This document shows, piece after piece, positions 33 to 21,875 of a DNA stretch of 25,166 bases. Within the stretch, counting starts at the first letter, position 1. Every line of letters starts with the position of its first letter. Source of the stretch: a bacterium (GTDB taxonomy: Bacteria; SZUA-182; DTGQ01; JAFGSM01); NCBI GenBank assembly GCA_049472355.1, contig JBLIRP010000060.1:1-25166 (forward strand), written 5' to 3'. Made by a program: the position numbers and the translations under genes. Under the pieces are notes generated by a model that did no database searches, was not told where the DNA came from, and worked only from the letters and a program-made list of their open reading frames with translations.

Positions 33-1961
<1,929 letters not shown>

Positions 1962-2054
1962 ACGCTGCATGCTCCTTTTCGATAGGAAACCCTTTGCCCG
2001 CGGAGAGGGTACCCCCCTACACAACGCCTCACAGGCGGGCAGGGAACGAAGACC

Positions 2055-5756: not shown

Positions 5757-6794
5757 TTACTGCTCCTTTGCGGATTCCTTTGCGACCTCGAAGTGCTTCG
5801 ACAACAACCGCTGGGCAGAGGCGCCCTCGATGGCCTTTATGGCGATGTTTTGAACCTGCTTGCCGGCATCGTCCGATTTCTGTGTCAACTGGCGGATATA
5901 CGTCTCCTGTTCTTTGATCTTCGCCTCGAGCCCGGAGACGATCTGCGCATGCAACCGCCTCTCTCCTTCGATCTCCTTGGCCGCGAGGGCCGCCTCGTGA
6001 CGGTACCGTGACTCCAGTTTCTCGGTCACGGATTTCTCCGTGTCCTGGATCGCCTTTTCCATTCTTTCCGGAAACTGGGTGACCGCGGCCTTCATTTCCT
6101 CGTATTCCTTCTCCCGGACGGAAATGGCTGCCTCCCGATCGGAAAGCTCCTTCTCAGCGGCGATCTTCTTTTCGGCAAGCACCTTATCCAGCGCCGCCTT
6201 TTTTGCCTCGTACGCGTCGTTTTCCTTCTTTCTCTTCAACTGGAGGGAATAGGCGTACTCCTCTTCCTCGCGATCCCGCTCCTTTTTAACCCTCGCATCC
6301 CTTTCCTTCACCGCCTGCTCGTGCGCCTCCTGCTCCCTCTTCCATTCCAGCCTCTTCTGCCCCAACTCCGCATCAAGGGCATGCCGCTTCTCATCCATGT
6401 CCTTTGCAAACTGCGCACTCTTCTCCTTCTGTGCCTGAAGGAGAGCGTCGAGGCTGTCCGCATTCACCGTGATATCGTGAATCTCCTGCAGGGTCGTTCG
6501 TCCGATTTCTATGGCCTGCTGCAGGTCCGACAATTTCTTGAACTCGGCAATCAACCGTTCCTCGAGATTGTCCAGGGCCCCCCCGATCTCCAGCTTGATC
6601 TGGGCCAGTCCCTTTACAATCCTCTCCACCGAATGCTGGGATGCCTCCCTGACCAGCCGCTTTTCCTCAACCTGTTTCCTTTCCGCCTGCCGATCCGGGA
6701 CCTGTCCCTTCTGGAGCCTCTCCAACACCTCATGGTATGCCTGCAAAATCTCACTCTTGGTGCTTTTCCCGGAGATCTCCTTTTTCTCTTCCAT
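5757..6794 (-). CDS. Hypothetical long coiled-coil protein (E/K/A/Q/L-rich, about 345 aa)
   Basis: Long ORF with alpha-helical, charged composition and no TM segment or signal peptide. AAGGAG lies 7 nt before the ATG at 6794 (the ORF track starts at 6800). Confidence 0.85.
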   Translation of the reverse strand: MEEKKEISGKSTKSEILQAYHEVLERLQKGQVPDRQAERKQVEEKRLVREASQHSVERIVKGLAQIKLEIGGALDNLEERLIAEFKKLSDLQQAIEIGRTTLQEIHDITVNADSLDALLQAQKEKSAQFAKDMDEKRHALDAELGQKRLEWKREQEAHEQAVKERDARVKKERDREEEEYAYSLQLKRKKENDAYEAKKAALDKVLAEKKIAAEKELSDREAAISVREKEYEEMKAAVTQFPERMEKAIQDTEKSVTEKLESRYRHEAALAAKEIEGERRLHAQIVSGLEAKIKEQETYIRQLTQKSDDAGKQVQNIAIKAIEGASAQRLLSKHFEVAKESAKEQ

Positions 6795-7002
6795 GGTCAT
6801 GCTCCTTTTTGTTCTTCATGAAAAACCAAGGCATTGTTATACGTCTATCGCAGTGATTATGCCTCACCACTGCTCGAATGCATGCACGAGTTTCCTCGAT
6901 AAAAGGCAGAAGGCCGCTCGATTCGATCGCTGCAATCCGGCACGAATAGAAGCTGATACATGAGAATCGAAGACGTCCTTTATGACGGATTACCCCGGCC
7001 AC

Positions 7003-7395
7003 TTACCATATCGTTTCCACATCGCCGAAATCCATAATCCTTCGGTCGGAAGAGACCACAGGTATCCCCAATATCCTTGATGTTGCAACGATGATCTGGT
7101 CTGCAGGGTCTCGATGAAGACCGCGAAGCTGGGTGCTTTCTACAGCGATCTCAGGGGAAAGATCCGCGATACTTATATTGAATTCATTAAGAGAGCGTCG
7201 AATCCATGTGATCAAGGGTATTGAGAAGGATATCCTTTTTTTCTCGACCAGCTTTGCCAATTCCCAGCATGATATGGCAGAGATCCATTTTTGATGTGCC
7301 TTGTTGAGCATCGTCTTTGCCTTATGCGAAAGGGACGCCTCGTTTTGGATGCTTACCCAAATCCAGATATGCGTATCCAGAAGAAGGGCCTTCAC
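7003..7395 (-). CDS. vapC: PIN-domain type II toxin (VapC family)
   Basis: PIN motifs LLDTHIWIW, SAISCWE, HRDPADQIIVAT, VSSD. The GTG start at 7395 overlaps the antitoxin stop (GTGA) and has GGGAGG 7 nt upstream. Confidence 0.9.
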   Translation of the reverse strand: MKALLLDTHIWIWVSIQNEASLSHKAKTMLNKAHQKWISAISCWELAKLVEKKRISFSIPLITWIRRSLNEFNISIADLSPEIAVESTQLRGLHRDPADQIIVATSRILGIPVVSSDRRIMDFGDVETIW

Positions 7396-7616
7396 CTTGT
7401 AACCTCCCATTCATCATCGGCAACAGGAGAGAGTATATCCCCGATGAACGTGACGGTATCCTTGAGCGGGATCTCTTCTTTCTGATTATTCACCGGGATT
7501 ATTTCGGCAATCGGCTCGCCCCGCTTGGTGATGAGCACCCTCTTTTTCTTCATTTTGACATCTTCAAGGACTGAAAGGCAGATGGCCTTGAACTTGGATA
7601 CCGATAATGTCTCCAT
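7392..7616 (-). CDS. Phd/YefM-family antitoxin, 74 aa
   Basis: Phd/YefM N-terminal pattern SVSKFKA...VLITKRGEPIAEIIP, an acidic C-terminus, and translational coupling to the downstream PIN gene. Confidence 0.9.
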   Translation of the reverse strand: METLSVSKFKAICLSVLEDVKMKKKRVLITKRGEPIAEIIPVNNQKEEIPLKDTVTFIGDILSPVADDEWEVTR

Positions 7617-7634
7617 CTTTTGCCCCCCTATTTA

Positions 7635-7662
7635 ATTATGGTCAAATCACTATTACCATAAT
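7635..7662. promoter_or_regulatory. Putative TA autorepression operator (inverted repeat)
   Basis: Perfect 8-bp inverted repeat ATTATGGT-N12-ACCATAAT overlapping the -10 box and predicted start site. Confidence 0.6.
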
Positions 7663-7686
7663 ATCGATTTGCCTTCTCATTGTCAA
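7658..7686 (-). promoter_or_regulatory. sigma70-type promoter of the TA operon
   Basis: The minus strand reads TTGACA-17 nt-TATTAT, ending about 40 nt upstream of the antitoxin ATG. Confidence 0.75.
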
Positions 7687-7794
7687 AGAGCGGCAATTCC
7701 ATTTGGGAGTGCAGCATGGTGAGCAGACATGTTCAGGAGGGATTTAGGGAGGCCTTCTGTAAATTTTCTCTCCCCCCGGGCGAACACCGCTCCC

Positions 7795-9783
7795 TTACAT
7801 GAAGTAGTCGAAATCCGCCTCCCTGCGCAGGCGGTGGTGCACCCTGAATATGTGGGCCGGGACGAGCGAGGGGGAAAGCTCCACGCGATTCGAATCCCCC
7901 TGCCACAGGTACTTGTCGTCGCTGATCAGGTCGGTGACCAGGTAGGGTTGGCCGGGGACGATCCCCAACTCGTCAAGGGGAATCTTGACGGAGCCGGACT
8001 GGGTGTGGAAGGGATCCAGGTTCACGATGACCATGATGATGTTGGACAGGTCCTCGGTGGCCTTGACAAAGGCAAGGAGGTATTCGTTGTCCACCTCGCA
8101 GAACCGGAGGTTCCCGGTGGCCTGCAGGGCACTGTTGTTACGCCGGACCGCGTTGATCCTGGCGATGAAGTCCCGCAGGTTATCCTCCCTCCCCTCCACG
8201 TCCCAGTGCCTCACCTCGTACTTTTCCGAATGGAGATACTCCTCGCGGTCAGCGACCCCCTCGTTGATGGACAGCTCGAAGGGAGGACCGTACAGGCCGT
8301 AGTTGGAGGAGAGAGTCGCGGCCAGCACAAGGCGCACCAGAAAGGCGGACCTGCCGTCGTACTGCAGGAATTCAGGGAGGATATCCGGGGTGTTCGGCCA
8401 GAAGCTGGGACGGAGGTACTCCCGAATCCCGGTGGAGGTGAGCTCGGTAAGGTATGCGGTGATCTCCTGTTTGGTGTTTCTCCAGGTGAAGTAGGTGTAG
8501 GACTGGGTGAACCCGAGCTTGGCGAGGCGGTTCATGACCTTGGGCCGGGTGAAGGCCTCGGCCAGAAAAAGCACATCGGGATGCTGCTGCTTCACCTCGC
8601 TGATAAGCCATTCCCAGAAGCAAAAGGGCTTGGTGTGGGGATTGTCCACGCGGAATATGCGAACCCCCTTTTCGACCCAGAAAAGCACGATCCCCTTCAA
8701 TTCCTCCCACAGGGACTGCCAGTGATCCGTCTCGAAGAAAAAGGGCACGATGTCCTCGTAGCGTTTGGGGGGATTCTCCGCAAACTGGATGGTGCCGTCC
8801 GGCCTCCACAGGAACCACTCCGGGTGCTCCGTAAGGTAGGGGTGGTCGTTTGAGCACTGGAAGGCCAGATCGAGGGCGATCTCGATGCCGTGCCGGCCGG
8901 CCTTTTTGACGAGATCCACGAAATCCTCCATGGTGCCGAGGAGGGGGTGGACGCTGGTATGGCCTCCCTCTTCGTAGCCGATGGCCCAGGGGCTTCCCGG
9001 GTCGTCCGGCCCGGCGGCAGGGGCGTTGTCCCTTCCCTTGCGCTGTGTCCTCCCGATGGGGTGGATGGGGGGCAAGTAGAGCACATCGAACCCCATCCGC
9101 TCCAACTCGGGGAGGAGCCCCTCGCAGTCCTTGAAGGTCCCGTGTCTTCCCGGCTCCGGGGAACAAGACCGGGGAAAGATTTCATACCAGGCGCTGAACA
9201 GGGCCTTCTCCCTGTCCACCACCAGGGGAAGCTCCCGCTCGTATACGGACATGAGCCCCCTGTCCGGATACCGGGCCATCAGCTCGGCAAGCTCCTCACT
9301 CAGACCCGCCGAAACCGCCTGTTCGATATCCTCCCGATTGCTCAGGATAGCGGCGATCTGACGGAGCCGCTCCCTGTCGGCGCTGGTTGCCCGCTCAGCA
9401 GCCGCCTCCACATACCCGGCACCGACCAGGAGCTTCACCCCCACCTCCTGACCCGCATCCCTGGACTTCCTCAGGTCCTTGTGCCAGGTCGCAAACCGGT
9501 CGATCCACCCTCCCACCGCATACAAGTAGAATCCGGGCTCTTCAACGCTGAAGGCGCCTTCCCAGGCGTCGTTTCCCGATGATGTCATGGGTGACTCGCG
9601 CCACTCCTCTTCATCCTCCCTGCGAAAGAGGATGACCGCGGCAACATCGTCGTGTCCGTCCGCAAACACATCCGCACTCACCCTGATCCTCTCGCCTGTC
9701 ACCCGCTTTACGGGAAACCTGCCGCCATCGATCCGTGGGGTGACCCGCTCAATGACCACCCGCCTGCGTCCGTCACGTTCCAT
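7795..9783 (-). CDS. glgE: Alpha-1,4-glucan:maltose-1-phosphate maltosyltransferase
   Basis: Motifs AWYEIFPRS, LYLPPIHPIG, GSPWAIG, ENPPKRYEDI, FRVDNPHTKP, FLAEAFT, NTPDIL. Start set at the ATG at 9783, with AGGAGG 6 nt upstream. Confidence 0.95.
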   Translation of the reverse strand: MERDGRRRVVIERVTPRIDGGRFPVKRVTGERIRVSADVFADGHDDVAAVILFRREDEEEWRESPMTSSGNDAWEGAFSVEEPGFYLYAVGGWIDRFATWHKDLRKSRDAGQEVGVKLLVGAGYVEAAAERATSADRERLRQIAAILSNREDIEQAVSAGLSEELAELMARYPDRGLMSVYERELPLVVDREKALFSAWYEIFPRSCSPEPGRHGTFKDCEGLLPELERMGFDVLYLPPIHPIGRTQRKGRDNAPAAGPDDPGSPWAIGYEEGGHTSVHPLLGTMEDFVDLVKKAGRHGIEIALDLAFQCSNDHPYLTEHPEWFLWRPDGTIQFAENPPKRYEDIVPFFFETDHWQSLWEELKGIVLFWVEKGVRIFRVDNPHTKPFCFWEWLISEVKQQHPDVLFLAEAFTRPKVMNRLAKLGFTQSYTYFTWRNTKQEITAYLTELTSTGIREYLRPSFWPNTPDILPEFLQYDGRSAFLVRLVLAATLSSNYGLYGPPFELSINEGVADREEYLHSEKYEVRHWDVEGREDNLRDFIARINAVRRNNSALQATGNLRFCEVDNEYLLAFVKATEDLSNIIMVIVNLDPFHTQSGSVKIPLDELGIVPGQPYLVTDLISDDKYLWQGDSNRVELSPSLVPAHIFRVHHRLRREADFDYFM

Positions 9784-10189
9784 GCCGTTCCTCCTATTCA
9801 TCGCCTGGTGAGAACGATCGTTCTGAGTCCCCTGCACCTTCCCCGGGACGATGTACATTCCGGGAGGGTCTCGATAATCCGTCCTTCACTGAGCGGTTCG
9901 AATGAAACCGCTCGAGATAGTGTGGATCAATCAATTAAAAATTGTATAAACAGATCGGTCAAAAAGCAACCAACACCCCTGTATCCCCCCTGCAACCGCT
10001 GCGGGTATTCGAATCTCGACACGCACCAGGATTGCTGCTATAGTGCTTCACAACGGCATTGACCCACGCCGCATTCGTCTTCACTCCCCGCCGCAAGCCA
10101 AGGTTATCCCCCGCATACGGAAAATTTTGAAACAGCGGCTGCGAACGGGAAGGAATCGAAACGCCGCGCACAAAGCAAGGACTCCGCAC

Positions 10190-11605
10190 ATGGATACCAG
10201 CAGGACATACAGGACCCGTTTCATCCAGGCCAACAAGGACGAGTACGGCGACCGGTACACAGCCTTGAAATGGGCCTCGGGAAAAGAGGCCCACAGGGCA
10301 GCCGGCCTGAGGCAGGAGATACTGTCTGCCCTGGAGGGATCGGTGCACATCCGATTCAAGGGGACCAAGCCCCATTCGGGAGACCTCTCCCCGGGGTGCG
10401 AGATATGCGGAGATGGCACGTGGTCCTGCCTGTTCATCAACGGAAGGTGCAACTGCCGCTGCTTTTACTGCCCAACCGAGCAGAAGGGGATAAGTGTGCC
10501 CATGACCAACACGGTGCCATTCCCCCGCACCGGTGACTACGTGGACTACATCGGGGCACTCGATTTCAAAGGGGTGAGCATCAGCGGAGGCGAGCCCCTG
10601 GTTACCCTTCCCACCACGCTGAGCTTTATCAGCGCAGTGAAGAAACGGTTTGCAGACACAATTCATGTGTGGCTCTACACGAACGGGACCCTGGCGACAC
10701 AGGATATCCTTGCGCAGCTCAGGGATGCGGGACTGGATGAGATCAGGTTCAACATCGGCGCTTCCGGCTATGACCTCGAACCGGCGAGACTGGCCATGGG
10801 CGCCATCGGGTGCGTCACGGTGGAGATCCCCGCGGTCCCCGAGGATTATGATATCATAAAGGGGAAGCTCCTCGAGATGCAGCAGATCGGGATACACCAC
10901 CTGAACCTTCATCAGTTGCGCCTGACCCCTTACAATTACGAGCACCTTGCACACCGCAACTATACCTTCCTCCACGGGGAGAAGGTGACCGTGCTCGAGT
11001 CGGAATCGGCCGCATTGAACCTCATGCGATATGCCATAGAAAACGCGGTCGGACCTCCAATAAACTACTGCTCCTTTGTGTACAAAAACAGGTTCCAGCG
11101 GGCTGCGGCACGCAGGCGGAGCGCACGCCTTATCCGAAAAGGGCACGAGGAGATCACCGAGAACGGATACCTTCGGACTCTGTGCGTTACGGGCCCGGCG
11201 GATGAGCTCCGGATGCTTTCAGATCGTTTGAGGGCACGGGATGCAAGCGGGACATCCTGGTGCAGGGACACATCGGGAAACAGGCTCTATTTCGGCACAT
11301 CCGTGTGGGGGCATGTATCGTTCGAACGCGTAACCCTCATGATCGGGTACAGCGAGGCCAGGATCCTTCCCTCCCTCTCCTACCGCCACCCCTTTGTCGA
11401 GGTTGCCTTGAACAGGGGAAGAACCATAGCGATCGAAAAGGTACGGGCATGTGAGGAGATGGTGGTGGGGCATGATGAGATCGGCCGTTTTGAGGATCTT
11501 GTGATACGCAATACGGGAGCCCGCGAACCGGGCATCAGGGATGAACGGTGGCGGGTGATCGAGGGTTTTGAATTCCTTGGGGAGGGGCTCCAGGAATATT
11601 ACTGA
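10190..11605 (+). CDS. Radical SAM protein (COG2108-like, function unknown) with C-terminal extension
   Basis: CxxxCxxC motif (CNCRCFYC) preceded by SPGCEIC; also ISGGEPL, LYTNG and GLDEIRFN. Start set at the ATG at 10190 with AAGGA upstream. Confidence 0.88.
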   Translation: MDTSRTYRTRFIQANKDEYGDRYTALKWASGKEAHRAAGLRQEILSALEGSVHIRFKGTKPHSGDLSPGCEICGDGTWSCLFINGRCNCRCFYCPTEQKGISVPMTNTVPFPRTGDYVDYIGALDFKGVSISGGEPLVTLPTTLSFISAVKKRFADTIHVWLYTNGTLATQDILAQLRDAGLDEIRFNIGASGYDLEPARLAMGAIGCVTVEIPAVPEDYDIIKGKLLEMQQIGIHHLNLHQLRLTPYNYEHLAHRNYTFLHGEKVTVLESESAALNLMRYAIENAVGPPINYCSFVYKNRFQRAAARRRSARLIRKGHEEITENGYLRTLCVTGPADELRMLSDRLRARDASGTSWCRDTSGNRLYFGTSVWGHVSFERVTLMIGYSEARILPSLSYRHPFVEVALNRGRTIAIEKVRACEEMVVGHDEIGRFEDLVIRNTGAREPGIRDERWRVIEGFEFLGEGLQEYY

Positions 11606-11608
11606 GCA

Positions 11609-12541
11609 TCATGGCGGTGGCCTGCATGACTGCTGTTCGAGCATCGTGAGGAAATCCTCCGGCAGCGGTGCGCCATAGGCACGTTCAGGCATTCCACCCA
11701 TCTCAGGAAGTGCAATCCGACAGGCGTGGAGCATCAGGCGACCCATGCCCGTTGGAGGTGCTTTCCTCTCATGCCCGCGCAGCGGTCCGTAGAGACGGTC
11801 CCCAAGAATCGGCGCCCCCATGAAGGCCATGTGGATACGTAACTGATGCCTGCGCCCTGTCTCCGGCCACAGACGCACCCACTGTACCCCCTGCGACTCC
11901 CCCGTCACCCGGTAGCGGGTGACGGCCCGAAGCCCCCCTTTTTCCTTTACCGACATCATATCCCGACGCCTGGGATGTGAGCCGATGTAAGCGCTGATGC
12001 GTCCCTCTGGTGCAAGGCGATTAGGCGCAGCCACAACCGCCAAATATTCCCGCCCAACCGTACCCTCCTTGAAGGCAGTATCCAGGAAACGGTTGATCGG
12101 ACCGGGACGGGTGAGGATCACTACACCAGAGGCGTCGCGGTCGAGGCGATGGAAGAGCGAAAGGTCGCCAAACCGCCGGACTGCGAGATCCAGGAGGTTG
12201 CCCGCTCGGGCACCGTGCGTGTCGTGGGAGAGCAAACCCGCAGGCTTGTTGACGGCAATGAGGTCATCCTCCAGGCTAATGATCCAGGCATCATCGAACA
12301 CGCCAGGGGGCGGCACCTTCTCCTCCGGCGACCGGGCAACCTCGATTTCGTCACCGTGTTCCACCATCCAGGAGCAGAGCCAGACCACTCGACCATTGAC
12401 CCTGACACCCCCCGCATTGATCAGCGACCTTACCGCACGTCGCCCCCAATAAGGAAACAGGAGGAGCAAGGCCCGATCGAGCCGGGTTGGCCGCTCGATG
12501 CCGCATATTCGTGTATGAATCCTGCGCATCCCTGTCCCCAT
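11609..12541 (-). CDS. RluA/RluD-family RNA pseudouridine synthase with S4-like N-terminus
   Basis: Motifs RLDRAL, VNKPAGL, HRLDRDASG (catalytic Asp), TGRRHQLRIH, ILGDRLYG, LHA. The start could be 12529. Confidence 0.92.
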   Translation of the reverse strand: MGTGMRRIHTRICGIERPTRLDRALLLLFPYWGRRAVRSLINAGGVRVNGRVVWLCSWMVEHGDEIEVARSPEEKVPPPGVFDDAWIISLEDDLIAVNKPAGLLSHDTHGARAGNLLDLAVRRFGDLSLFHRLDRDASGVVILTRPGPINRFLDTAFKEGTVGREYLAVVAAPNRLAPEGRISAYIGSHPRRRDMMSVKEKGGLRAVTRYRVTGESQGVQWVRLWPETGRRHQLRIHMAFMGAPILGDRLYGPLRGHERKAPPTGMGRLMLHACRIALPEMGGMPERAYGAPLPEDFLTMLEQQSCRPPP

Positions 12542-12660
12542 CTTTCAAAATGAATACCTTCTTTCGCCATCATTGATCCATCCTGCGGCAGGGATTCTAT
12601 CACCAGGCCGGTTGCGTGTAAAACACGTGATCTCACCTTTTTTGAATTTTTCATATATCG

Positions 12661-12678
12661 ATTTCGAAATTTTTCTAA
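12661..12678. promoter_or_regulatory. Putative upstream activator site (enhancer) for a sigma54 activator
   Basis: ATTTCGAAATTTTTCTAA is 16/18 identical to 18381-18398; both start about 100 nt upstream of a -24/-12 site. Confidence 0.55.
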
Positions 12679-12760
12679 ACATTGTGCCACAGGCGTTGTA
12701 GCTGAAGCTGGAAAAACCTTCTATTACAGGCAGTTATGTTATCATGGATATCCCTCTGTG

Positions 12761-12777
12761 CTGGCATACAAGTTGCT
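12761..12777 (+). promoter_or_regulatory. sigma54 (RpoN) -24/-12 promoter upstream of repeat-protein gene 1
   Basis: CTGGCATACAAGTTGCT matches TGGCA..GG-N10-GC with TTGCT at -12; it is intergenic and correctly oriented. Confidence 0.7.
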
Positions 12778-13073
12778 CTTTGTAATTCTCGAGACGTGAA
12801 TGTGTGACAGGTTGTTACAGGGGAGTTTTTTATAAGTTACGTTTTTCCGTAGTATGCCATTTAATAACCTCCTTTTATATCCCAATTCGAAACAGCCTGT
12901 CCCCCGAAAACCATAATCGACCGGAACCATACTTCGCTTTATGCAAACAACCTTCAGGGCCTTTAGGCATCATGTGGGCCGAAAGAAAGGAGGAGGATAG
13001 CAGGAGACACTGTGCTGAATCTGTTCTCATAGAACCCTTCGTCAGACAAGGTTAAAAAAGGAGGTTAGCGAGC

Positions 13074-13550
13074 ATGAAAAGGAAAGGGATTGAGATACTT
13101 GCAATACTTATTCTTATCGCCGCCGTTGCCCTCTGCCTTGCGCCCCGTGTAAACGCCTATTACGGCGGGCTCTATGGCGGCCTCTTAGGTGGCTATGGCG
13201 GCCTCTACGGGGGGCTGTATGGCGGCCTCTTAGGTGGCTACGGGCTTATGGGCGGCCTCTACGGCGGGCTTTATGGCATGTATGGCGGCCTCTACGGGGG
13301 CATGTACGGCATGTACAGCCCGTTCAGTTTTGCGAACCTTTACTATCCGGTGCAAACAGCAGGAGGGCTGACCTATCAGGTGCCATTCCTCCAGATCGCT
13401 CCGCTGCTCGGTGTTGCCGGTCTGTACAATCAGCTCTTCCCGAACCTGTTTAATCCCCAGCCCCAACCTGTGCCGATCGTCAATGTATCAACCCCGGCTA
13501 CCCTGGGCGTGACATTCCCGACACCGGTGGGTACTTTCTCGATAACGTGA
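13074..13550 (+). CDS. Secreted Gly/Tyr/Leu-rich (YGGL-repeat) protein 1 with Pro/Thr-rich hydrophobic C-terminal domain, 158 aa
   Basis: Strong SD AAGGAGGT at 13058-13065. 28-aa Sec-type signal (KRK, hydrophobic core, VNA|YY). YGGL-type repeats occupy residues 29-80. A terminator follows. Confidence 0.88.
   Translation: MKRKGIEILAILILIAAVALCLAPRVNAYYGGLYGGLLGGYGGLYGGLYGGLLGGYGLMGGLYGGLYGMYGGLYGGMYGMYSPFSFANLYYPVQTAGGLTYQVPFLQIAPLLGVAGLYNQLFPNLFNPQPQPVPIVNVSTPATLGVTFPTPVGTFSIT
13158..13313 (+). repeat. Degenerate coding tandem repeat (12-bp YGGL and 21-bp YGGLLGG/YGGLYGM units)
   Basis: Recurrent TAYGGNGGNCTN units with synonymous third-position variation. Confidence 0.85.
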
Positions 13551-13561
13551 TGAAACATGGT

Positions 13562-13610
13562 TTCAGCAGGGAGGCTCGGGGATTTCCCGGCCTTCCTGCT
13601 GAACCTTTTT
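13562..13610 (+). terminator. Intrinsic terminator after repeat-protein gene 1
   Basis: Long stem TTCAGCAGGGAGGCTCGGG / CCCGGCCTTCCTGCTGAA followed by CCTTTTT, starting 11 nt after the stop codon. Confidence 0.8.
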
Positions 13611-13717
13611 GGTAGGTGGCAGCGTGTGGAGAACATCCCTGCCGCAGGCAACGGATGCATTTTCATCCTGAGCCCGGCAAAACACGGCCGCTTTTGTCAA
13701 AACCATGTATGAAAAAA

Positions 13718-13731
13718 TCGAAATTTTGCGA
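13718..13731. promoter_or_regulatory. Further copy of the palindromic box, upstream of repeat-protein gene 2
   Basis: TCGAAATTTTGCGA fits the TMGMAA-WW-TTKCKA consensus shared with 12664-12677, 18361-18374 and 18384-18397. Confidence 0.4.
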
Positions 13732-14029
13732 AATTTCCTGCAATAGAGTCTGTTTTTTACTATAAGCATACTAACATACTGAATTTATAGGAAGGAGGAC
13801 GCAATCGACCCACACCGGCTGCCTGCTCGAATTTCGACCGTGCGACACTTATGGCACATATCACAATCGAACATCCATTTCGCACCCCACGTAAAGAATC
13901 ATTGTTGGGATGTATGAAAGGGGGCGAATAGAACGATCAAAAAACTTTCACCGCTATCATCATTCTCTGAAGGTTTGATAGTGTAACGAGTTTGTTCAAT
14001 CACCAGGTTTTTGAAGGAGGTTAGGACCA

Positions 14030-14407
14030 ATGAGTAAGAAAGGGCTAGTTCTTTCAATCAGCTTAGTGCTCGTCATCGCCCTGTGCGTTGTTTTTGTCGG
14101 TCAGGCGAATGCCTATTACAGCGGCTACTACGGCGGACTCTACGGCGGACTCTATGGCATGTACGGCGGACTCATGGGCATGTACGGCGGACTCATGGGC
14201 ATGTACGGCGGACTGTACGGCATGTACGGTGGACTGTACGGCATGTACGGTGGACTCATGGGCATGTACGGCGGACTGTACGGCATGTACGGCGGACTCA
14301 TGGGCATGTACGGTGGCCTGTACGGTATGTACGGCGGACTCATGGGCATGTACGGTGGCCTGTACGGCATGTATGGCGGGCTCTACGGAATGTACGGAAT
14401 ATACTGA
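14030..14407 (+). CDS. Secreted Gly/Tyr/Met/Leu heptad-repeat protein 2, 125 aa
   Basis: SD AAGGAGGT at 14014-14021. 28-aa Sec-type signal (KK, hydrophobic core, ANA|YY). The mature part is YYSGY-YGGL-(YGGL[Y/M]GM)x12-YGIY. A terminator follows. Confidence 0.88.
   Translation: MSKKGLVLSISLVLVIALCVVFVGQANAYYSGYYGGLYGGLYGMYGGLMGMYGGLMGMYGGLYGMYGGLYGMYGGLMGMYGGLYGMYGGLMGMYGGLYGMYGGLMGMYGGLYGMYGGLYGMYGIY
14141..14392 (+). repeat. 12 x 21-bp coding tandem repeat encoding YGGL(Y/M)GM
   Basis: Units such as TACGGCGGACTCATGGGCATG and TACGGCGGACTGTACGGCATG; 7 Tyr-type and 5 Met-type units with no spacers. Confidence 0.95.
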
Positions 14408-14460
14408 TCAGGGATGTGGTAAGGCCTCACCCGGTCACAAGCACACCAGTTGATAGATGG

Positions 14461-14500
14461 AAGGCCTGGATGACAGGAGACACCCAGGCTTTTCCTTTTT
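14461..14500 (+). terminator. Intrinsic terminator after repeat-protein gene 2
   Basis: AAGGCCTGG...CCAGGCTTT stem followed by TCCTTTTT. Confidence 0.65.
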
Positions 14501-14564
14501 CATCCCCATCCCTCTGTTCCGTTTCAAACGCAACCGGACATGATACGTCCGGTTCCCTCCATTT

Positions 14565-14581
14565 CTGGCATTATTATTGCT
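14565..14581 (+). promoter_or_regulatory. sigma54 -24/-12 promoter upstream of the HK-NtrC operon
   Basis: CTGGCATTATTATTGCT: GG-N10-GC with TGGCA and TTGCT. Confidence 0.7.
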
Positions 14582-14609
14582 TGAAAGAGTAATAAGCTCA
14601 TATGCTTAA

Positions 14610-14638
14610 TTGACAATAGCCTTTTCGTTCAATAAGAT
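14610..14638 (+). promoter_or_regulatory. sigma70-type promoter upstream of the HK-NtrC operon
   Basis: TTGACA-17 nt-TAAGAT. Confidence 0.55.
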
Positions 14639-14751
14639 TGGAATAGGACCATCATCGTTTCAGGAGGCTGGAGACATCATAAATGGTATGTTACATGATA
14701 ATAGTGCGGCATGCCTCAGTGAAAGCGGTGATGTAAATCCTGGAGACACAC

Positions 14752-16914
14752 ATGAGACGAAGTATTAGCCGGCTCCTTTCATTCCTCGCAGGATCCGCAG
14801 TATTCTGCATCCTCTTCGGCATCCAGGATATCATCATCGGTCACCCTCCTATTATCGTGCGATACTATTCCTTCCCTTTCGTGATCGGCGGCTTCCTGGG
14901 GCTTATCTTCTTTATATGGCGCATAAAGCTCAAGGAAAGCAGAGGACGGACTGCCCGTCTCAATCTCATGCTGCGTATCATACAAAACGTGGACAAGCTC
15001 CTGGTCAAGGAGGGGGACCGCGAAAGGCTCATCCAGGGCATCTGCAATACCCTGGTCGAAAACAAGGGATATTACCTCACTGCCTGGATCGTTTTGCTGG
15101 GGCCATCGGGGGGGCTCGTTACCACTGCCGAGGCTGGTTGGGGTGAAGACTTCCTCTCCCTCTCTCTATGCGAAGAAATGAAGTCCATCCGACTTCCCCC
15201 TTGCATCAAACGGGCACTCTCAAAATCGGAGGTGGTATTCATTGACACCCCTGCCCTCGCCTGTCCTGAATGCCCCCTTGCTTCCCAATACCCTGACAGG
15301 GGGGTCATGACCGTGCGATTGGAGCACGGGGGAAAGATCTATGGGGCGCTGTCGGTATCGATTGCCAAGCATTTTATGGCCGACGAAAGGGACCAGGGAC
15401 TCATCGAAGAGGTGGCGGGAGATATCGCCTTCGCCCTCCACAGCATCGAGCTGTCCGAGGACCGGAAGCGGAAGGATAGGGAACTGCAGATCATCTTGGA
15501 TGCGGTGCCTGCCATGGTGTTCTACAAGGATACGGAAAACCGGATCGTGCGGGTCAACGATTCCTTTGTCAGGGCAACCGGGCTATCACGAAAAGAGATC
15601 ATCGAAAAATCCTGTTTCCATCTCTTCCCCGGCCAGGGTGACGATTTCTGGAGGGACGACCGTGAGGTCATGGAGACCGGCTGCCCGAAACGGAACATCA
15701 CCGAACAAATGGCTACAGCGCAAGGGCTGCGTTGGTTTGAAACGGATAAGATCCCCTACCGGGATGACCAGGGAAACATCATCGGGATAATCGGCTTCTC
15801 CATCGACATCACCGAGAAAAGAGAGGCACAGGAAGCGCTCCGGAAGAGCGAGAAGAGATTCCGCGACCTGGTTGAAAATTCATTGATCGGCATCGCCATT
15901 ATCCAGGAAAACAGGATCATTTACCGGAACCCTGAATATGAGAGGATCTTCGGGCCTGAATCCGTGCTGTTTCATTCCATGGATCTTTGCGGCATCCATC
16001 CCGAGGATGTGGAAAGGGTCAGATCGGATTTCTCCCGGTTGACCTCGGGGGAGGCGCAAAACATCTCACTCGACTTCCGGTTTTATCCACAGGAAGGGCA
16101 CATCATGAAATGGGTGTCCTGCCGAACGACCATGACCGAATACCAGGGGAAGGAGGCGATACTCCTCAACATAATGGACATTTCCAGGGCCAAGGAGCTT
16201 GAGAATCTCCTGAGGGTTCAGGACAAGATGACGTCGCTTGGCCGCGTGGCCGCAGGGATCGCCCATGAGATACGTAACCCCCTCTCGGGCATCAACATAT
16301 ATCTGAACACCCTGGAGAAGATCTATGAAAAGGGGGAAGGCTCGGAAAAGGTGAAGCGGATCATCAGCCAGATCCAGTCGGCATCGGGAAAGATCGAATC
16401 CGTTATACGGAGGGTCATGGATTTCTCACGGCCGTCCACGCCGAAGCTCCTCCTGACGGATATCAATCACCCGGTCGAAGAGGCCCTCGGCCTGGCATCA
16501 ACCTCCCTGCAAAAAATGGGGATAACACTGCAAAAGGACCTTGCAGCCAACCTGCCTCCCTGCCTCATCGACAGCCACCTGATAGAGGAGGTGATCCTGA
16601 ACCTGGTCACCAATGCCTCTGATGCCCTGAAGCATATGGAAGGAGAAAAAAGGATCCGCATCGCTTCATCCATGCAGAAGGGCTGCATCATACTCACTAT
16701 TTCCGATTCGGGCCTCGGCATCCCTCCCCATGTGCAGGGAAGGATCTTCGATCCCTTTTATACCACCAAGACCGGAAGCACGGGAATCGGGCTGAGCATC
16801 TGTCACCGCATCATCACGGACCATGGGGGAAGCCTCCATCTGGGCACAAGCGAGTGGGGCGGGGCCGAATTCAGGATCGAGATCCCGCTCGCCGGGGGAG
16901 AGTGCACGGGATGA
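14752..16914 (+). CDS. Membrane-anchored sensor histidine kinase (2 TM-GAF-PAS-PAS-HisKA-HATPase), NtrB-like
   Basis: Two N-terminal hydrophobic helices, a GAF-like region and PAS/PAC ends (SIDITE, IMDIS). H-box AHEIRNPL, N-box NLVTNA, DSGLGI, FDPFYTTK, GIGLSI. Confidence 0.93.
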   Translation: MRRSISRLLSFLAGSAVFCILFGIQDIIIGHPPIIVRYYSFPFVIGGFLGLIFFIWRIKLKESRGRTARLNLMLRIIQNVDKLLVKEGDRERLIQGICNTLVENKGYYLTAWIVLLGPSGGLVTTAEAGWGEDFLSLSLCEEMKSIRLPPCIKRALSKSEVVFIDTPALACPECPLASQYPDRGVMTVRLEHGGKIYGALSVSIAKHFMADERDQGLIEEVAGDIAFALHSIELSEDRKRKDRELQIILDAVPAMVFYKDTENRIVRVNDSFVRATGLSRKEIIEKSCFHLFPGQGDDFWRDDREVMETGCPKRNITEQMATAQGLRWFETDKIPYRDDQGNIIGIIGFSIDITEKREAQEALRKSEKRFRDLVENSLIGIAIIQENRIIYRNPEYERIFGPESVLFHSMDLCGIHPEDVERVRSDFSRLTSGEAQNISLDFRFYPQEGHIMKWVSCRTTMTEYQGKEAILLNIMDISRAKELENLLRVQDKMTSLGRVAAGIAHEIRNPLSGINIYLNTLEKIYEKGEGSEKVKRIISQIQSASGKIESVIRRVMDFSRPSTPKLLLTDINHPVEEALGLASTSLQKMGITLQKDLAANLPPCLIDSHLIEEVILNLVTNASDALKHMEGEKRIRIASSMQKGCIILTISDSGLGIPPHVQGRIFDPFYTTKTGSTGIGLSICHRIITDHGGSLHLGTSEWGGAEFRIEIPLAGGECTG

Positions 16915-18308
16915 TCTCATATCTCATTTACATCGTCGATGATGAAGAGACCATCCGGGAGGGGATCACCATGGCCCTGGAACCGGAGTATCAGGTGAAG
17001 TCATTCCCCACTGCCGAATCGGCCATCAAGGCGATCAGGTCTACTCCACCCGATCTGATGCTGCTCGATATCGGGCTGCCGGGAATGGACGGCATCGAGG
17101 CCCTCCGCCATATCAGGGACATCGATCCGGAAATCCTGGTGATCATGATCACGGCATACGAGGACATCACCACCGTCATCACCGCCATGAAGCAGGGGGC
17201 CCGCGATTATGTGATAAAACCGATCAACATGGACGGCCTCGAGATGATCATCCGCAACTGTCTCGAGGCCATCCAGTTGCGGAAAGAGGTCCGGTCGCTC
17301 CAGGAGCACTATCTGAGGGAGACCATCCCCTTCTTTACCGGCACCAGCAACGTCATGCAGGAGGTGATGGAATTTATCGAGATGGTGGCCAGGAGCGCGG
17401 ACACCCCCATCCTCATCATCGGGGAGACCGGCACCGGCAAGGAGCTTATCGCCGGCGCCATCCATTACCGGAGCCCCAACTTCAACGGGCCCCTGATAAC
17501 GGTGAATTGTGCATCCATTCACAAGGAGCTCATCGAAAGCGAGCTCTTCGGGTATGAACAGGGGGCATTCACCGGGGCGAGGGCATCGGGGAAAAGGGGG
17601 CTGATCGAGGAGGCGAAAAACGGGACCCTGTTTCTCGACGAGGTGGGAGACCTGAGTCTCGAGGCCCAGGCAAAGCTGCTCAGGTTTCTCGAGGTGGGGG
17701 AATTCTATCATATCGGCGGCACCGAAAAACTCACGGTAAAAACCCGGATAGTCTCGGCAACCAATAAGGACCTGGATGCAATGATTGAAAACGGCATGTT
17801 TCGCAAGGACCTCTATTTCCGCCTTGGGGTCATAAAGGTCGAGGTACCCTCCCTGAACGAACGTCCGGAGGATATCATCCCCCTGGCCAAGCACTTCCTG
17901 GTGGAGTTCAGTAAAAAGTTCGGCAAGACCTTTACAGGGTTCTCTCCCCAGGCTGAAGCCGTTCTGACCAGTCATCGGTGGACGGGTAATGTTCGCGAAC
18001 TGAGAAACTTCATCGAGCGTGGGGTGCTCATAGGTAAGGGGCCGGAATTGATGCCCCAGGACCTGGGCATCAAGGAGTCGGGCACACGAGGGCAACGCAG
18101 CGGCGGCCGAGTGGATCTCCCGTGCACCTTCCCTCCCATCCCCCCCCACGGCATGGACCTCTCCGTCGGGCTGCAGGCACTTGAACGATTCTATATCGAA
18201 GAGGCGCTCAGAATGGCCGGGGGGAATGAATGCAAGGCCGCGCGGCTCCTCAACATCAACCATCATACCTTTCGCTATCGCAGGAAAAGGCTGAAGATCA
18301 GGGGATGA
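16911..18308 (+). CDS. sigma54-dependent NtrC/Fis-family response regulator (REC-AAA+-HTH)
   Basis: REC (IVDDE, LLDIGLPGMDG, ITA, IKP), Walker A GETGTGKE, ESELFG, GAFTGA, FLDEVGD, WTGNVREL, and a C-terminal HTH. The ATG at 16911 overlaps the HK stop (ATGA). Confidence 0.95.
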   Translation: MISYLIYIVDDEETIREGITMALEPEYQVKSFPTAESAIKAIRSTPPDLMLLDIGLPGMDGIEALRHIRDIDPEILVIMITAYEDITTVITAMKQGARDYVIKPINMDGLEMIIRNCLEAIQLRKEVRSLQEHYLRETIPFFTGTSNVMQEVMEFIEMVARSADTPILIIGETGTGKELIAGAIHYRSPNFNGPLITVNCASIHKELIESELFGYEQGAFTGARASGKRGLIEEAKNGTLFLDEVGDLSLEAQAKLLRFLEVGEFYHIGGTEKLTVKTRIVSATNKDLDAMIENGMFRKDLYFRLGVIKVEVPSLNERPEDIIPLAKHFLVEFSKKFGKTFTGFSPQAEAVLTSHRWTGNVRELRNFIERGVLIGKGPELMPQDLGIKESGTRGQRSGGRVDLPCTFPPIPPHGMDLSVGLQALERFYIEEALRMAGGNECKAARLLNINHHTFRYRRKRLKIRG

Positions 18309-18360
18309 ACCCCTCTGCCTCCCATCCCCACTCGATTTTTCCCAGTACCCGATGAATCGT

Positions 18361-18398
18361 TAGAATTTTTTCTATCCACTATTTCGCAATTTCTCTAA
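18361..18398. promoter_or_regulatory. Tandem putative enhancer boxes upstream of the receiver gene
   Basis: TAGAATTTTTTCTA (18361-18374, palindromic arms) and ATTTCGCAATTTCTCTAA (18381-18398). Confidence 0.55.
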
Positions 18399-18479
18399 TC
18401 ATTCCATGCCCAAAGGGATACCGGAAGGCGGAAACCCAATAGATTCATTGGGTCTCTGCATGTCTCCTATGCCATGCCC

Positions 18480-18496
18480 GTGGCATGCACAATGCT
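18480..18496 (+). promoter_or_regulatory. sigma54 -24/-12 promoter upstream of the stand-alone receiver gene
   Basis: GTGGCATGCACAATGCT: GG-N10-GC. Confidence 0.6.
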
Positions 18497-18520
18497 TATA
18501 AATAGATGGGAGAAATTTTT

Positions 18521-18943
18521 ATGGCACACCAATCATACAGCTCAACAATGAACCTCGATGATACCATGAAGAAGGTAAAGATCCTTCTCATCGACGATGA
18601 TGAGTGGATCAGGGATTCCTTGAGCCTCTTTTTTGAAAACGAGGGATGGCACCTGCGCGCCCTTGAAACGGCAGAGGAGGGCATTGAACTGCTCAAGAAC
18701 CAGACCTTCGAGGTCATCATCACCGATTACCGGTTGCCGGGGATGGATGGCCTGGAATTCTTCAAGCATATTCAAGGGTCGCATCCCAATGCACTGAAAA
18801 TCCTGATCACCGCTTACTGGAACACGGAGGTGGTATCGGAGGCGGAGAAGATAGGGATCCGCGATCTCATCAAAAAGCCCTTCACCACCAAGACCATTGA
18901 GGAAACCCTCTCACGATGGATGAAGGATACGCGCAGGCAGTGA
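18521..18943 (+). CDS. Single-domain response regulator (receiver only)
   Basis: Motifs LLIDDD, ITDYRLPGMDG, LITAY, KKPF. The start is uncertain: 18521 has GGGAG 8 nt upstream; 18506, 18548 and 18566 are alternatives. Confidence 0.9.
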   Translation: MAHQSYSSTMNLDDTMKKVKILLIDDDEWIRDSLSLFFENEGWHLRALETAEEGIELLKNQTFEVIITDYRLPGMDGLEFFKHIQGSHPNALKILITAYWNTEVVSEAEKIGIRDLIKKPFTTKTIEETLSRWMKDTRRQ

Positions 18944-19175
18944 TACGCCGAAGCGTTACATTACGCGCATATCCTTCGATCTTTATCGAAATTACAGAAT
19001 GTTTGCGGGAAGGGGGTGAGCATCCTCCTACAATGTCTTCGGCAGCCGCACATCATGTGCGTCCTTAGTCACAAATTTCCATTCTGTCGAATAAATAGAT
19101 AGTGAATGCGTGATATCTGGAAGACTGCCGGTACGCCAACCGCAACAATTCATCCCGTGGGGTCAATGAATCTCC

Positions 19176-20651
19176 ATGGGAATTCAGGAAAGAGTTTTTA
19201 GGATGTCTCAAAAACTGCTGGAAAGGCCGATCCATGAGACGGATTCCATTCTGGAAGCCATCAGGCGAGGCGCGGAGATCATCGATGCGGAGTTCAATGT
19301 CCGCTACGTGAGCGAGCAATGCCGGAGGATCTACGGCGATCCCTTCAACAGGAAATGTTATGAATATTTCATGGGCAGGCGCGAGGTCTGCCCGGACTGT
19401 GTTATCGTCGAGGCTGGGAGGGTGAAGGCCCCGATTGTTACCGAAAAGATCCTTCCGAGAAGGTTCAACCGGATCATGCAGGTGACCACGATCCCCTTCC
19501 AGGTGGAGAACGGCGAATGGTGGTTCGCCCTGATATCCGTGGATATAAGCAATCGGAGAAGGGCCGAGGAGACCTTGCGGGAAAGCGAGCAGCGATTGCG
19601 CGGCATTCTGGACGCCCTTCCCGACATGATCGTGCAGGTCGATCCCGATATGAACATCATCTGGGCAAACAAACGGGCGCTTGATATGAACCCTGACGCA
19701 CTGGGGCAGACCTGCTTCAAGGCTTACGTGGGCAGGGAGGAGCCATGCGAGGGATGTCCGTGTTCCAGGGCCATAGAGACCGGAAGCATCGAAATGGCCA
19801 CCATGTATCAACCGGCCACCCAAGGGGTGGAAGGGGAAAGCTACTGGGAGGATATCGGCGTTCCCCTCAAGGATAAACGGGGAAATGTCACCAGCGTCAT
19901 CGAGATCGCTCGGGACGTGACCGAACGTAAGCGGGCGGAACATGTGCTGAATCACTACATCGAGGAGCTGAAGGCGCGCAACGAGGAACTGGACGCCTTC
20001 TCCCATACCGTGGCCCATGACCTCAAGAACCTGCTGGGGGTGCTCATAAATTGCGGATATGCAATCGAACAGGGGCACGAGAGAATGCCCAGGGGCAAAA
20101 TCCTGCGCTATGGCCAGAGGATCCTGAACAACGGGCAGAAGATGATCAATATCATCGACGAGTTGATGCTCCTTGCCCGGGTGCGCACAATCGACGAGGT
20201 GGAAACACAGCCGCTGCACATGGCGCGGATCGTGGAAGAGGCCATGGGCCGCCTGGATCATTTGATCAAGGAATACAACGCAGACATCATCGTTCCCGAG
20301 GTATTGCCCAGGGCGTCAGGATACGGCCCATGGGTGGAGGAGGTGTGGGTCAACTACCTGAGCAATGCCATAAAATACGGAGGGAACCCCCCGCGCGTGG
20401 AGCTCGGCGCCACCCCAAGCCCAAACGGCATTATCAGGTTCTGGGTCAGGGACAACGGCCCCGGCTTTTCCCCGGAGGACCAATCCCGCCTGTTCCACCC
20501 CTTTACCCAGATCAACCAGGCACGCATCGAGGGACACGGGCTCGGATTGTCCATCGTCCGGCGGATTGTTGAACGGCTCGGCGGAGAGGTAGGGGTGGAA
20601 AGCCGGAAGGGACAAGGAAGCACCTTTTTCTTTACCTTGAAGAAGGCGTAG
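19176..20651 (+). CDS. Soluble PAS-PAS sensor histidine kinase
   Basis: Two PAS/PAC domains, each with C-x10-C-x2-C. H-box AHDLKN, NYLSNAIKY, DNGPGF, GHGLGLSIV, GQGSTF. No TM segment. The start may be 19203. Confidence 0.92.
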   Translation: MGIQERVFRMSQKLLERPIHETDSILEAIRRGAEIIDAEFNVRYVSEQCRRIYGDPFNRKCYEYFMGRREVCPDCVIVEAGRVKAPIVTEKILPRRFNRIMQVTTIPFQVENGEWWFALISVDISNRRRAEETLRESEQRLRGILDALPDMIVQVDPDMNIIWANKRALDMNPDALGQTCFKAYVGREEPCEGCPCSRAIETGSIEMATMYQPATQGVEGESYWEDIGVPLKDKRGNVTSVIEIARDVTERKRAEHVLNHYIEELKARNEELDAFSHTVAHDLKNLLGVLINCGYAIEQGHERMPRGKILRYGQRILNNGQKMINIIDELMLLARVRTIDEVETQPLHMARIVEEAMGRLDHLIKEYNADIIVPEVLPRASGYGPWVEEVWVNYLSNAIKYGGNPPRVELGATPSPNGIIRFWVRDNGPGFSPEDQSRLFHPFTQINQARIEGHGLGLSIVRRIVERLGGEVGVESRKGQGSTFFFTLKKA

Positions 20652-20672: not shown

Positions 20673-21875
20673 CTATGCGTCAAGCAAGGACTGGTACAGA
20701 TCGAAGGTCTTTTGTGCGATCGCCTTCCAACTGAAAATCTCTTCCGCGCGCCTGCGCCCCTTTTGCCCCATCTGCCTGCACCTATCGGGATCGGCTATCA
20801 GACGGTTGACGGCATCCGCGAGGTGTTTGGACAACTGCAGGTTATCGGATGACGGGCCGGCACAGGCATGATCCGGCTCCACCAGGAGCCCCGTCTCTCC
20901 GGGAATGACCACCTCCTTGATCCCGCCCACCGCGGTTGCTACCACCGGGGTCCCGCACGCCATGGCCTCCAGGTTGATGATGCCGAAGGGCTCGTAGATG
21001 GAAGGACAGCAAAAAACGGCCGCATGGGAGTAGAGCCCCACGATCGTCCTCTTGTCCACCATCTCCTGTATCCAGACGACATTGTCCCGCATCCCCCGCA
21101 TCGCTGCAACACCCCGTTCCATCTCCTCGGCGATCTCCCTGGTGTCAGGGGCGCCCGCGCACAGCACCACCTGTACGGAGGAATCGAGGTACGGGATGGC
21201 ATTGACCAGATGCATGATCCCCTTCTGCCGGGTTATCCTCCCCACGAAGAGCACGTAGGGCTTATGCGGGTCAATGCCGAAGCGCTCCAGGGAATCCGGA
21301 GAGCAGGTCCGGCAGTACTCCTCGACGTCGATCCCGTTATAAATCACATGGACCCGTTCCTCGGGCACGCGAAAATGGGTGAGCACATCCTTCCTGGTCT
21401 CCTCGGACACGGCGATCACCGCATCGGCCATCTCGATTGCGGTCCTTTCCACCCAGCAGGAAAAATCATAGGCCCGTCCAAGCTGCTCCCGTTTCCACGG
21501 GCGAAGCGGCTCCAGCGAATGGATGGTAATCACCAGGGGAACGCCGTAGTGAAGCCTTGCCAGGATGCCCGCCAGATGGGTATACCAGGTGTGGCAGTGG
21601 ACGATCCGGGCATCGATGTCCTGTGCAGTGAAGGAAACGCTCCGGCAGCAGGCGGCCAGCGAACTCCTGATCTGCCGCGGGCAGGTTGCGAACAATCGCT
21701 CATCGATCCCGAAACCGTTGACCTTCAGGTTCCCGTTGTCTGTCTCTTGGTTCCCGAAACACCGAACCTCCACCGGGGTGAGCCGAGAGATCTCGCGGAC
21801 GAGGTATTCCACGTGGACCCCCGCCCCTCCATACACATGGGGAGGGTATTCATTGGTAAGCATCAGTACCTTCAT
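20673..21875 (-). CDS. glgM: GT4 glycosyltransferase, actinobacterial-type GlgA/GlgM (alpha-maltose-1-phosphate synthase / 'glycogen synthase')
   Basis: Motifs TNEYPPHVYGGAGVHV, HCHTWY, HSLEPLRPWKREQLG, VGRITRQKG, PSIYEPFGIINLEAMAC. Confidence 0.85.
   Translation of the reverse strand: MKVLMLTNEYPPHVYGGAGVHVEYLVREISRLTPVEVRCFGNQETDNGNLKVNGFGIDERLFATCPRQIRSSLAACCRSVSFTAQDIDARIVHCHTWYTHLAGILARLHYGVPLVITIHSLEPLRPWKREQLGRAYDFSCWVERTAIEMADAVIAVSEETRKDVLTHFRVPEERVHVIYNGIDVEEYCRTCSPDSLERFGIDPHKPYVLFVGRITRQKGIMHLVNAIPYLDSSVQVVLCAGAPDTREIAEEMERGVAAMRGMRDNVVWIQEMVDKRTIVGLYSHAAVFCCPSIYEPFGIINLEAMACGTPVVATAVGGIKEVVIPGETGLLVEPDHACAGPSSDNLQLSKHLADAVNRLIADPDRCRQMGQKGRRRAEEIFSWKAIAQKTFDLYQSLLDA

Follow-up and report, generated by a model that had tools for sequence, protein, structure and literature searches.

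What would an uncultured anaerobic bacterium build from two tandem genes for exported proteins made largely of glycine/tyrosine repeats, and what would switch them on? The question is raised by contig JBLIRP010000060.1 of assembly GCA_049472355.1 (25,166 nucleotides, hereafter the window; the genome is termed G000), in which two such genes, rep1 (13074..13550, + strand) and rep2 (14030..14407, +), precede genes for a sensor kinase, an NtrC-type sigma54 activator, and a stand-alone receiver. All five genes are found where an initial annotation of the bare sequence had placed them; its further claim, that they form a self-contained system, did not hold, as rep1 and rep2 are two of approximately 50 paralogs, of which only three lie near an activator of the GAFTGA type. 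We propose, with a probability of roughly 0.55, that the two proteins are subunits of a multi-component protein material outside the cytoplasmic membrane (a sheath, matrix, or wall layer). In the literature searched the protein family is without a description, and the regulators are of a known kind.

Charge-free repeat proteins and their family

The open reading frame (ORF) of rep1 codes for 158 residues comprising a signal peptide (1-28), YGGL/M repeats (approximately 29-81), and a conserved uncharged C-terminal module (82-158, hereafter the C-module), and that of rep2 for 125, namely a signal peptide and 97 residues of pure G/Y/M/L repeat. Both leaders are 28 residues long and of the Sec type, with a basic-hydrophobic course and an A-x-A end followed by Tyr, and each gene has the Shine-Dalgarno sequence (SD) AGGAGGT, in agreement with the initial annotation, which had seen exported proteins with strong SDs. 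The mature proteins (130 residues in rep1 and 97 in rep2) have no charged residues (Asp, Glu, Lys, Arg) and no His; mature rep2 consists of G40 Y25 M17 L13 plus one Ser and one Ile, with zero Gln, Asn, Ala, and Pro. Neither protein matches a family in Pfam, NCBIfam, or PHROGs, and all 54 database homologs of rep1 (58-100% identity) are unnamed or hypothetical, in keeping with the earlier impression that no described family is involved. An Atlas search gave top feature scores of 0.81 for rep1 and 0.89 for a barrel domain of its paralogs (see below), which are leads only and point to no named family. We found no description of the Gly/Tyr family in the literature searched, a mention in the tables of a genome paper being possible.

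Near-identical tetra- and heptapeptide repeats might also be expected of a precursor of short signaling or modified peptides, i.e., a multi-core ribosomally synthesized and post-translationally modified peptide (RiPP), and two genes upstream of rep1 lies a gene for a radical SAM protein (10043-11605, +; below all NCBIfam cut-offs) that could be its maturase. We regard this as very improbable: the mature parts offer no basic or other cleavage residues, and genes with radical-SAM motifs occur within 3 kb of 5/50 family genes as against 170/2863 others. A linked radical SAM maturase was rejected, since in a search of 62 loci, many of which are short, the gene is syntenic with rep1 only in G001, a genome of the same genus as G000.

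A six-frame scan of G000 recovers 52 Gly/Tyr-rich frames, and a second threshold (a Gly/Tyr window score of at least 17) recovers 51, 47 with a hydrophobic N-terminus and the other four at contig ends; the approximately 50 family genes are spread over 37 contigs. A crude gene caller, which misplaces some starts (43/50 signal peptides vs 47/51 in the frame-based counts), yields a further 55 secreted proteins with charge-free aromatic low-complexity stretches, so that Gly/Tyr and related aromatic low-complexity genes make up 105 of the 2944 called. The DNA pattern for YGG[L/M/I]YGG is present in all 13 genomes of the order (three families, seven genera; 6 to 136 matches per genome) and in none of seven others of the class, a distribution to which no significance test was applied because kin are not independent. 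As far as these genomes go, the family is a mark of one order of uncultured anaerobic bacteria. Its genes are enriched in the SD GGAGG (23/39 vs 218/1210 other genes), and an extra AGGAGG stands upstream of 13/39 as against 87/1210. Linkage to activators is no general trait and was rejected as such: only 3/50 family genes have a GAFTGA-type activator within 5 kb vs 144/2875 other genes, and two of these three are rep1 and rep2 themselves.

A widespread regulatory module and the control of rep1

The kinase (14752..16914, +) has the GAF, PAS, PAS, HisKA, and HATPase domains of Pfam behind a hydrophobic N-terminal anchor, which the initial annotation had not mentioned. Its stop overlaps the start of the activator gene (16911..18308, +), whose product has the order REC-Sigma54_activat-HTH_8 (PF00072, PF00158, PF02954), and the receiver (18506 or 18521 to 18943, +) has a single PF00072 domain. 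The combination of REC, AAA+ domain with GAFTGA loop, and Fis-type HTH in a genome with rpoN (and about 27 enhancer-binding proteins) is that of the NtrC class. The protein shares with NtrC/AtoC-type activators the domain order, the GAFTGA loop, and a tandem enhancer approximately 100 nt upstream of a -24/-12 element, but scores under every NCBIfam equivalog cut-off shown; it appears to represent an unnamed subfamily, whose conserved target would be the downstream receiver gene. Orthologs are found in G001 (89% identity), G004 (71%; likewise of the same genus), and G005 (66%; same family, other genus), and were not found in G002 and G003, both 63% complete. Of the 80 loci kept from genomes with names, nine hold more distant orthologs (57-70% identity); most of these are of Desulfobacterales type, with KSB1 and a single gammaproteobacterial record besides. 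Six of these nine have the tandem box and a -24/-12 element downstream of the activator and before the receiver gene (L030 being counted by matching position, as the receiver gene is not in its ORF table).

The conserved linkage of repeat genes and regulators that had been anticipated holds within the genus, G001 retaining the whole locus and G004 retaining rep1, kinase, NtrC, and receiver without rep2; it does not hold in G005, where kinase and NtrC stand on a 14.7-kb contig with no repeat gene, nor at the nine distant loci, which show no Gly/Tyr ORF, some of them being short on the upstream side. Conversely, among 29 metagenome loci with the rep1 C-module the enhancer and element are seen in two and an activator in none, most close relatives lying on contigs of <4 kb. 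As the kinase-NtrC-receiver module is widespread without repeat genes, it was apparently joined to them in this genus: on present comparisons it is a general module that recruited rep1, and not the defining part of the locus. In several distant genomes the module stands, as read by eye, among genes resembling those for universal-stress and CBS proteins. The same or a similar enhancer and a sigma54 element also precede further genes at L025 (11749 and 14430) and at L033 (4023), the latter target resembling a universal stress protein gene.

The three sigma54-like elements of the initial annotation are all present, with their TGG one base later than given, at 12762, 14566, and 18481. The number of such motifs in the window is that expected by chance (four matches at one mismatch vs 3.3 expected); we take the sites to be real because all three are conserved in G001 and G004 and two have an enhancer 99-101 nt upstream. 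These two belong to rep1 (12762..12777, +; predicted +1 near 12788), with a tandem enhancer or upstream activating sequence of the NtrC subfamily at 12640..12680 (+; two imperfect palindromes, at 12640 and 12662, 22 nt apart), and to the receiver gene (18481..18496, +), with boxes at 18359 and 18382 (18359..18400, +). The third, before the kinase (14566..14581, +), has no enhancer box and is followed by a sigma70-like site (14610-14638, +). The rep1 enhancer is conserved in G001, G004, L175, and L181, and there as in G000 the second box lies 99-101 nt from the element; for rep1 the distance is 100 nt in G000 and 100-101 nt in the four relatives. This spacing is kept although the intervening DNA is conserved only between G000 and G001, and taken with the matrix scores that follow it makes the box very probably the enhancer of this activator. 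A matrix of the box built from eight promoters (seven from six distant loci, one from G004, and none from G000, the seed having been picked by eye with G000 in view, a small circularity) ranks rep1 first (46.5) and the receiver gene second (28.3) among the 642 sigma54-like sites of G000, the third site scoring 3.1. With both promoters ranked on top by a foreign-trained matrix, and with an element, an activator site approximately 100 nt upstream, and conservation in relatives found for each, control of rep1 by the adjacent NtrC is well supported, though at the level of the genus; we consider it highly likely, and the regulon of this NtrC in G000 very probably consists of rep1 and the receiver gene.

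The proposed sigma54 control does not extend to rep2. Of the box thought to be shared by rep1, rep2, and the receiver gene, rep2 has a single weak copy upstream (13716..13734, +; 12.7 bits), and no GG-N10-GC core occurs between 13740 and 14030 or at the matching stretch of G001. Orthologs of rep2 are found in G001 and in the relative L175, where rep1 and rep2 again stand in tandem, each preceded by a box and a sigma54 element, the core before rep2 lying 100 nt after its box. Judging from this comparison, rep2 probably had its own sigma54 promoter, which has decayed in G000 and G001.

The predicted rep1 leader is long (12788..13073, +), with the SD at 13059-13065 and an extra SD-like run before it (12988-12996). 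At 12865-12882 lies an anti-SD stretch that is complementary to 13050-13067, 167 nt downstream, and is kept in G001 and not evident in G004; it and the extra run are hints of post-transcriptional control of rep1. A scan of 12400-19300 with Rfam for a riboswitch gave three chance matches, all below the gathering score. Contigs from RNA libraries, which cannot show transcript starts, begin their cover of rep1 at 12947-13011 vs the predicted 12788, one contig having a loose end there, and in three runs, which represent two studies, the contigs start no more than 6 nt apart (12947-12952), approximately 160 nt past the predicted start, possibly at a processed 5' end. The terminators assigned to both repeat genes correspond to a strong hairpin with a short T run after rep1 (13559..13610, +; -37.2 kcal/mol) and a hairpin with a T-rich tail after rep2 (14459..14502, +; -21.1 kcal/mol for 14445-14505), but a consensus terminator scan called neither, and we term them probable. 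The first hairpin is spanned by one contig (13535-14029), which is no proof of a single transcript. The leader of a rep1 paralog elsewhere in the genome (L137, i.e., G000:C58 upstream of 36590; also L147, L127, and L149) has a conserved SD and an ORF of 12 codons with Arg-Arg-Trp-Cys at its end, a possible leader peptide; both were read by eye in four genomes of the genus.

Five RNA runs from two studies, with small word shares, were retrieved with the entire 6.35-kb stretch as query. Exact-match contigs lie over both rep1 and rep2 in all four RNA libraries examined, again from two studies, which bears on the transcript evidence that had been called for. These contigs cover parts of 13011-14456, in two runs also parts of the gap between rep1 and rep2, and in one run part of the receiver gene; no contig of the four runs lies over 11500-12727 or 14570-15797, and a second sequence variant with few differences is likewise present in RNA libraries. 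The libraries bear on the idea that the proteins form the coat of a resting or stress stage (a cyst or spore-like wall) and are made only under induction. Tyr/Gly-rich proteins are found in spore coats and eggshells, and the chorion analogy is of this kind. Strict sigma54 sites are enriched in the family (10/42 vs 29/974, p=1e-6), the genome has its numerous enhancer-binding proteins, and the module keeps the company of stress-like genes in the distant genomes mentioned above. We nevertheless think such a coat unlikely, as the presence of both genes in all four libraries fits ordinary growth at least as well, and other secreted genes are likewise enriched in strict sigma54 sites (17/207).

Protein architectures and host physiology

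Members of the family display several architectures: repeats alone, repeats with the C-module, repeats with an avidin-like barrel, and Gly/Tyr tags on protease inhibitors and proteases. The C-module of rep1 has matches in 12 of the 13 genomes of the order, and 19 columns are invariant in an alignment of 53 sequences, so near an invariance that it suggests a defined contact. Searched with a profile against 1.84 billion representatives it gave only 30 matches, and with its sequence against the PDB a single one (E 0.43); a complex prediction with four copies scored 0.01 against a mark of 0.42 and counts neither way. The near-invariance argues against the proteins being a diffuse adhesive or coacervate glue for contact with minerals and cells, as opposed to an ordered layer. 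Such a glue would suit the predicted disorder of the Tyr/Gly stretches, and phase separation and adhesion are reported for an abundant anammox matrix protein, Brosi_A1236 of 'Ca. Brocadia sinica' (PMC7482068), an anaerobe in which this extracellular protein forms matrix by phase separation of its disordered parts. That protein, however, is a single large Ig-like surface-layer protein with disordered tails, whereas here there is a family of small proteins that are almost wholly of low complexity, which moreover lack basic residues, in a host with no tyrosinase match (the control being silent as well). A glue accordingly strikes us as a slim prospect.

The barrel is carried by paralogs and is absent from rep1 and rep2 of the window. 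The C-terminal domain of eleven G000 proteins is predicted to be an eight-stranded barrel (pLDDT, the predicted local distance difference test, ~90), and matches occur in 12/13 genomes of the order, up to 25 per genome. By Foldseek it is closest to streptavidin/avidin (E 2e-4, target TM score 0.70), whose eight-stranded antiparallel fold the predicted structure matches, with a Z-score of 12.6 and a root-mean-square deviation of 2.4 over 102 residues to zebavidin; in the same VIA-align comparison its Z-score is equaled by further eight-stranded barrels, small outer-membrane ones among them, and the two barrel proteins scanned gave no Pfam family, Avidin included. In the sea urchin protein fibropellin, a non-biotin-binding avidin-like domain serves oligomerization in an extracellular setting, according to the account in PMC8033661. 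Repeats, the rep1 module, and the barrel are united in one protein at four of five loci checked from another family, with module and barrel placed behind the repeats, and this fusion links rep1 with the barrel group. At G006:C12:72935-84615, several large ORFs stand in a cluster and contain tandem barrel copies, at least four of them in a 1027-residue frame.

The domains joined to Gly/Tyr or aromatic stretches were sampled in 24 selected proteins, where we found alpha-2-macroglobulin (two proteins), Kazal (one), I42 (three), S8 subtilase (two), Cthe_2159 (one), and LVIVD (three), and 10 proteins without any Pfam family. Three unrelated inhibitor classes with such stretches would fit a structure that needs protection from proteases. 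Two of the proteins would be unusual cargo for a bacterium, viz., L155 (G000:C91:18034-20625), which is secreted and has eight or more Kazal repeats, and L154 (G000:C120:12731-18517), an alpha-2-macroglobulin with an internal Gly/Tyr run.

The host is diderm, with matches to BamA-type and LpxC models, and acsB (acetyl-CoA synthase) is found in 14/20 genomes and a haem-copper oxidase in 0/20. From these gene contents, the order would consist of diderm Wood-Ljungdahl-type anaerobes without evident sulfur oxidation: a model for fccB matched 0/13 genomes with a control genome giving a match, soxB is below cut-off in G000 (87.5% complete), and dsrA (0/20) and aprA (0/13) are weaker negatives, as their controls also gave no match, SQR and sHdr not having been searched. 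This weakens the possibility of a coat around a periplasmic inclusion, such as SgpA/B/C form on the sulfur globules of Allochromatium vinosum. In the passages of PMC10386293 that concern them, the Sgp proteins are small, very hydrophobic, Sec-exported, multi-copy structural proteins, an apt likeness in a diderm host; their hosts, however, oxidize sulfur, and one to six sgp genes are given there as examples, as against some 50 here with folded add-on domains. We hold an inclusion coat to be decidedly unlikely, and membership of the Gly/Tyr proteins among sulfur-globule proteins is unsupported. Enzymatic cross-linking of Tyr finds no evidence in searches for DyP (0/20), tyrosinase (none in G000, the control noted above being silent), and CCP/MauG (none in G000, and a patchy 5/13 in the order).

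A candidate material outside the cytoplasmic membrane

Among described systems, squid suckerins, also named in the initial annotation, offer a close likeness, specifically in their amorphous module: their M2 modules belong to a secreted modular multi-gene family of Gly/Leu/Tyr repeats (GGLY, GGY, GYG) that forms a non-covalent material, and GGLY, the M2 motif (as given in the sections of PMC11931252 bearing on these modules), occurs six and eight times in the two repeat proteins. Suckerins differ in being animal proteins with no homology shown and in having an Ala/His-rich, Pro-flanked M1 module, and the repeats here are joined to bacterial domains and enzymes. Curli (CsgA/CsgB) are comparable as secreted repeat subunits of approximately 13 kDa with tandem genes and a dedicated regulator (PMC9999432, for the aspects that it is cited for here), but their repeats are Gln/Asn-rich and need CsgG; curli membership of rep1 and rep2 is unsupported, given the lack of a Pfam match, of Gln and Asn in mature rep2, and of a full CsgG match. 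By analogy, the family would work most like the suckerin M2 or Sgp material proteins while being a member of neither.

Several observations weigh against a material of this kind. The proposal rests on composition and architecture, and suckerin's Ala/His beta-sheet module is missing from rep1 and rep2. The AlphaFold model of rep1 has a mean pLDDT of 52.8, a low confidence because of which it was not used for fold searches. Strict sigma54 sites precede only 10 of the 42 family genes. The RNA contigs show presence and not level, strand, or start, and their depth was not used for ranking. On the export side, the CsgG model is matched only weakly and in part (its positions 41-99 of 210) by two frames of 719 and 739 residues, and no dedicated outer-membrane route was found, with five unassigned secretin matches present; the proteins may therefore stay in the periplasm.

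In the preferred reading of a multi-component material, its assembly might proceed as follows. The kinase would phosphorylate NtrC, which would bind the tandem enhancer and open the sigma54 promoters of rep1 and the receiver gene, at sites identified by comparison. The products would be exported by Sec, and signal peptidase I would cleave behind the observed leader to leave an N-terminal Tyr. The charge-free repeats, with Tyr, Leu, and Met spaced by Gly, could then condense through contacts between aromatic and hydrophobic side chains, no oxidative cross-linker being involved, as their composition and the suckerin analogy suggest. The C-module of rep1 and the eight-stranded barrel may act as junctions, and the Gly/Tyr or aromatic stretches seen fused to protease inhibitors, subtilases, and a carbohydrate-binding protein may tether them to the structure. 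Separate regulators would switch separate paralogs, this locus being one inducible input.

A bolder version, for which we put the odds well below even, is that throughout this one order some 100 secreted proteins of low complexity, aromatic and free of charge, make up an undescribed kind of cell covering. It would be the bacterial equivalent of materials of the suckerin or chorion type, made without oxygen or enzymatic cross-linking. The Gly/Tyr segments would both form its bulk polymer and act as an address tag by which protease inhibitors, proteases, and binding domains are brought into it, and its make-up would be tuned paralog by paralog through different sigma54 activators.

Of the remaining contents of the window, the locus is flanked (33-9858, -, and 20673-21875, -) by a glycogen/trehalose-like set and a glycosyltransferase, the former including a branching enzyme, a TreS-Mak fusion, and GlgE, all named by eye, and 5757-6800 (-) codes for a charged coiled-coil protein of 347 residues with no Pfam or NCBIfam family above cut-off. 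Elsewhere in G000 another expanded family came to light, 17 genes that share a W-x-A-L/M-P-P-Y-N motif and mostly code for 183-237 residues, on C1, C2, C3, C27, C52, C57, C60, C72, C82 (five copies), C89, C90, C91, and C112; the proteins inspected are secreted and Pro/aromatic-rich, and several of the genes follow sigma54-like sites.

In practical terms, the YGG[L/M/I]YGG pattern could be used as a marker for the order, the family offers materials research a natural library of uncharged repeats, and the regulon of the unnamed NtrC subfamily could be mapped from its enhancer sites in distant genomes. With the rep1 promoter, whose enhancer and activator are defined, and the 97-residue, four-letter repeat of rep2, the idea lends itself to direct tests both in vitro and in a laboratory strain. 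The structural proteins that bacteria are known to place outside the membrane are for the most part folded subunits, such as pilins, S-layers, and curli. The lineage-defining expansion of approximately 50 Gly/Tyr and 55 further aromatic low-complexity genes points to a different building principle.

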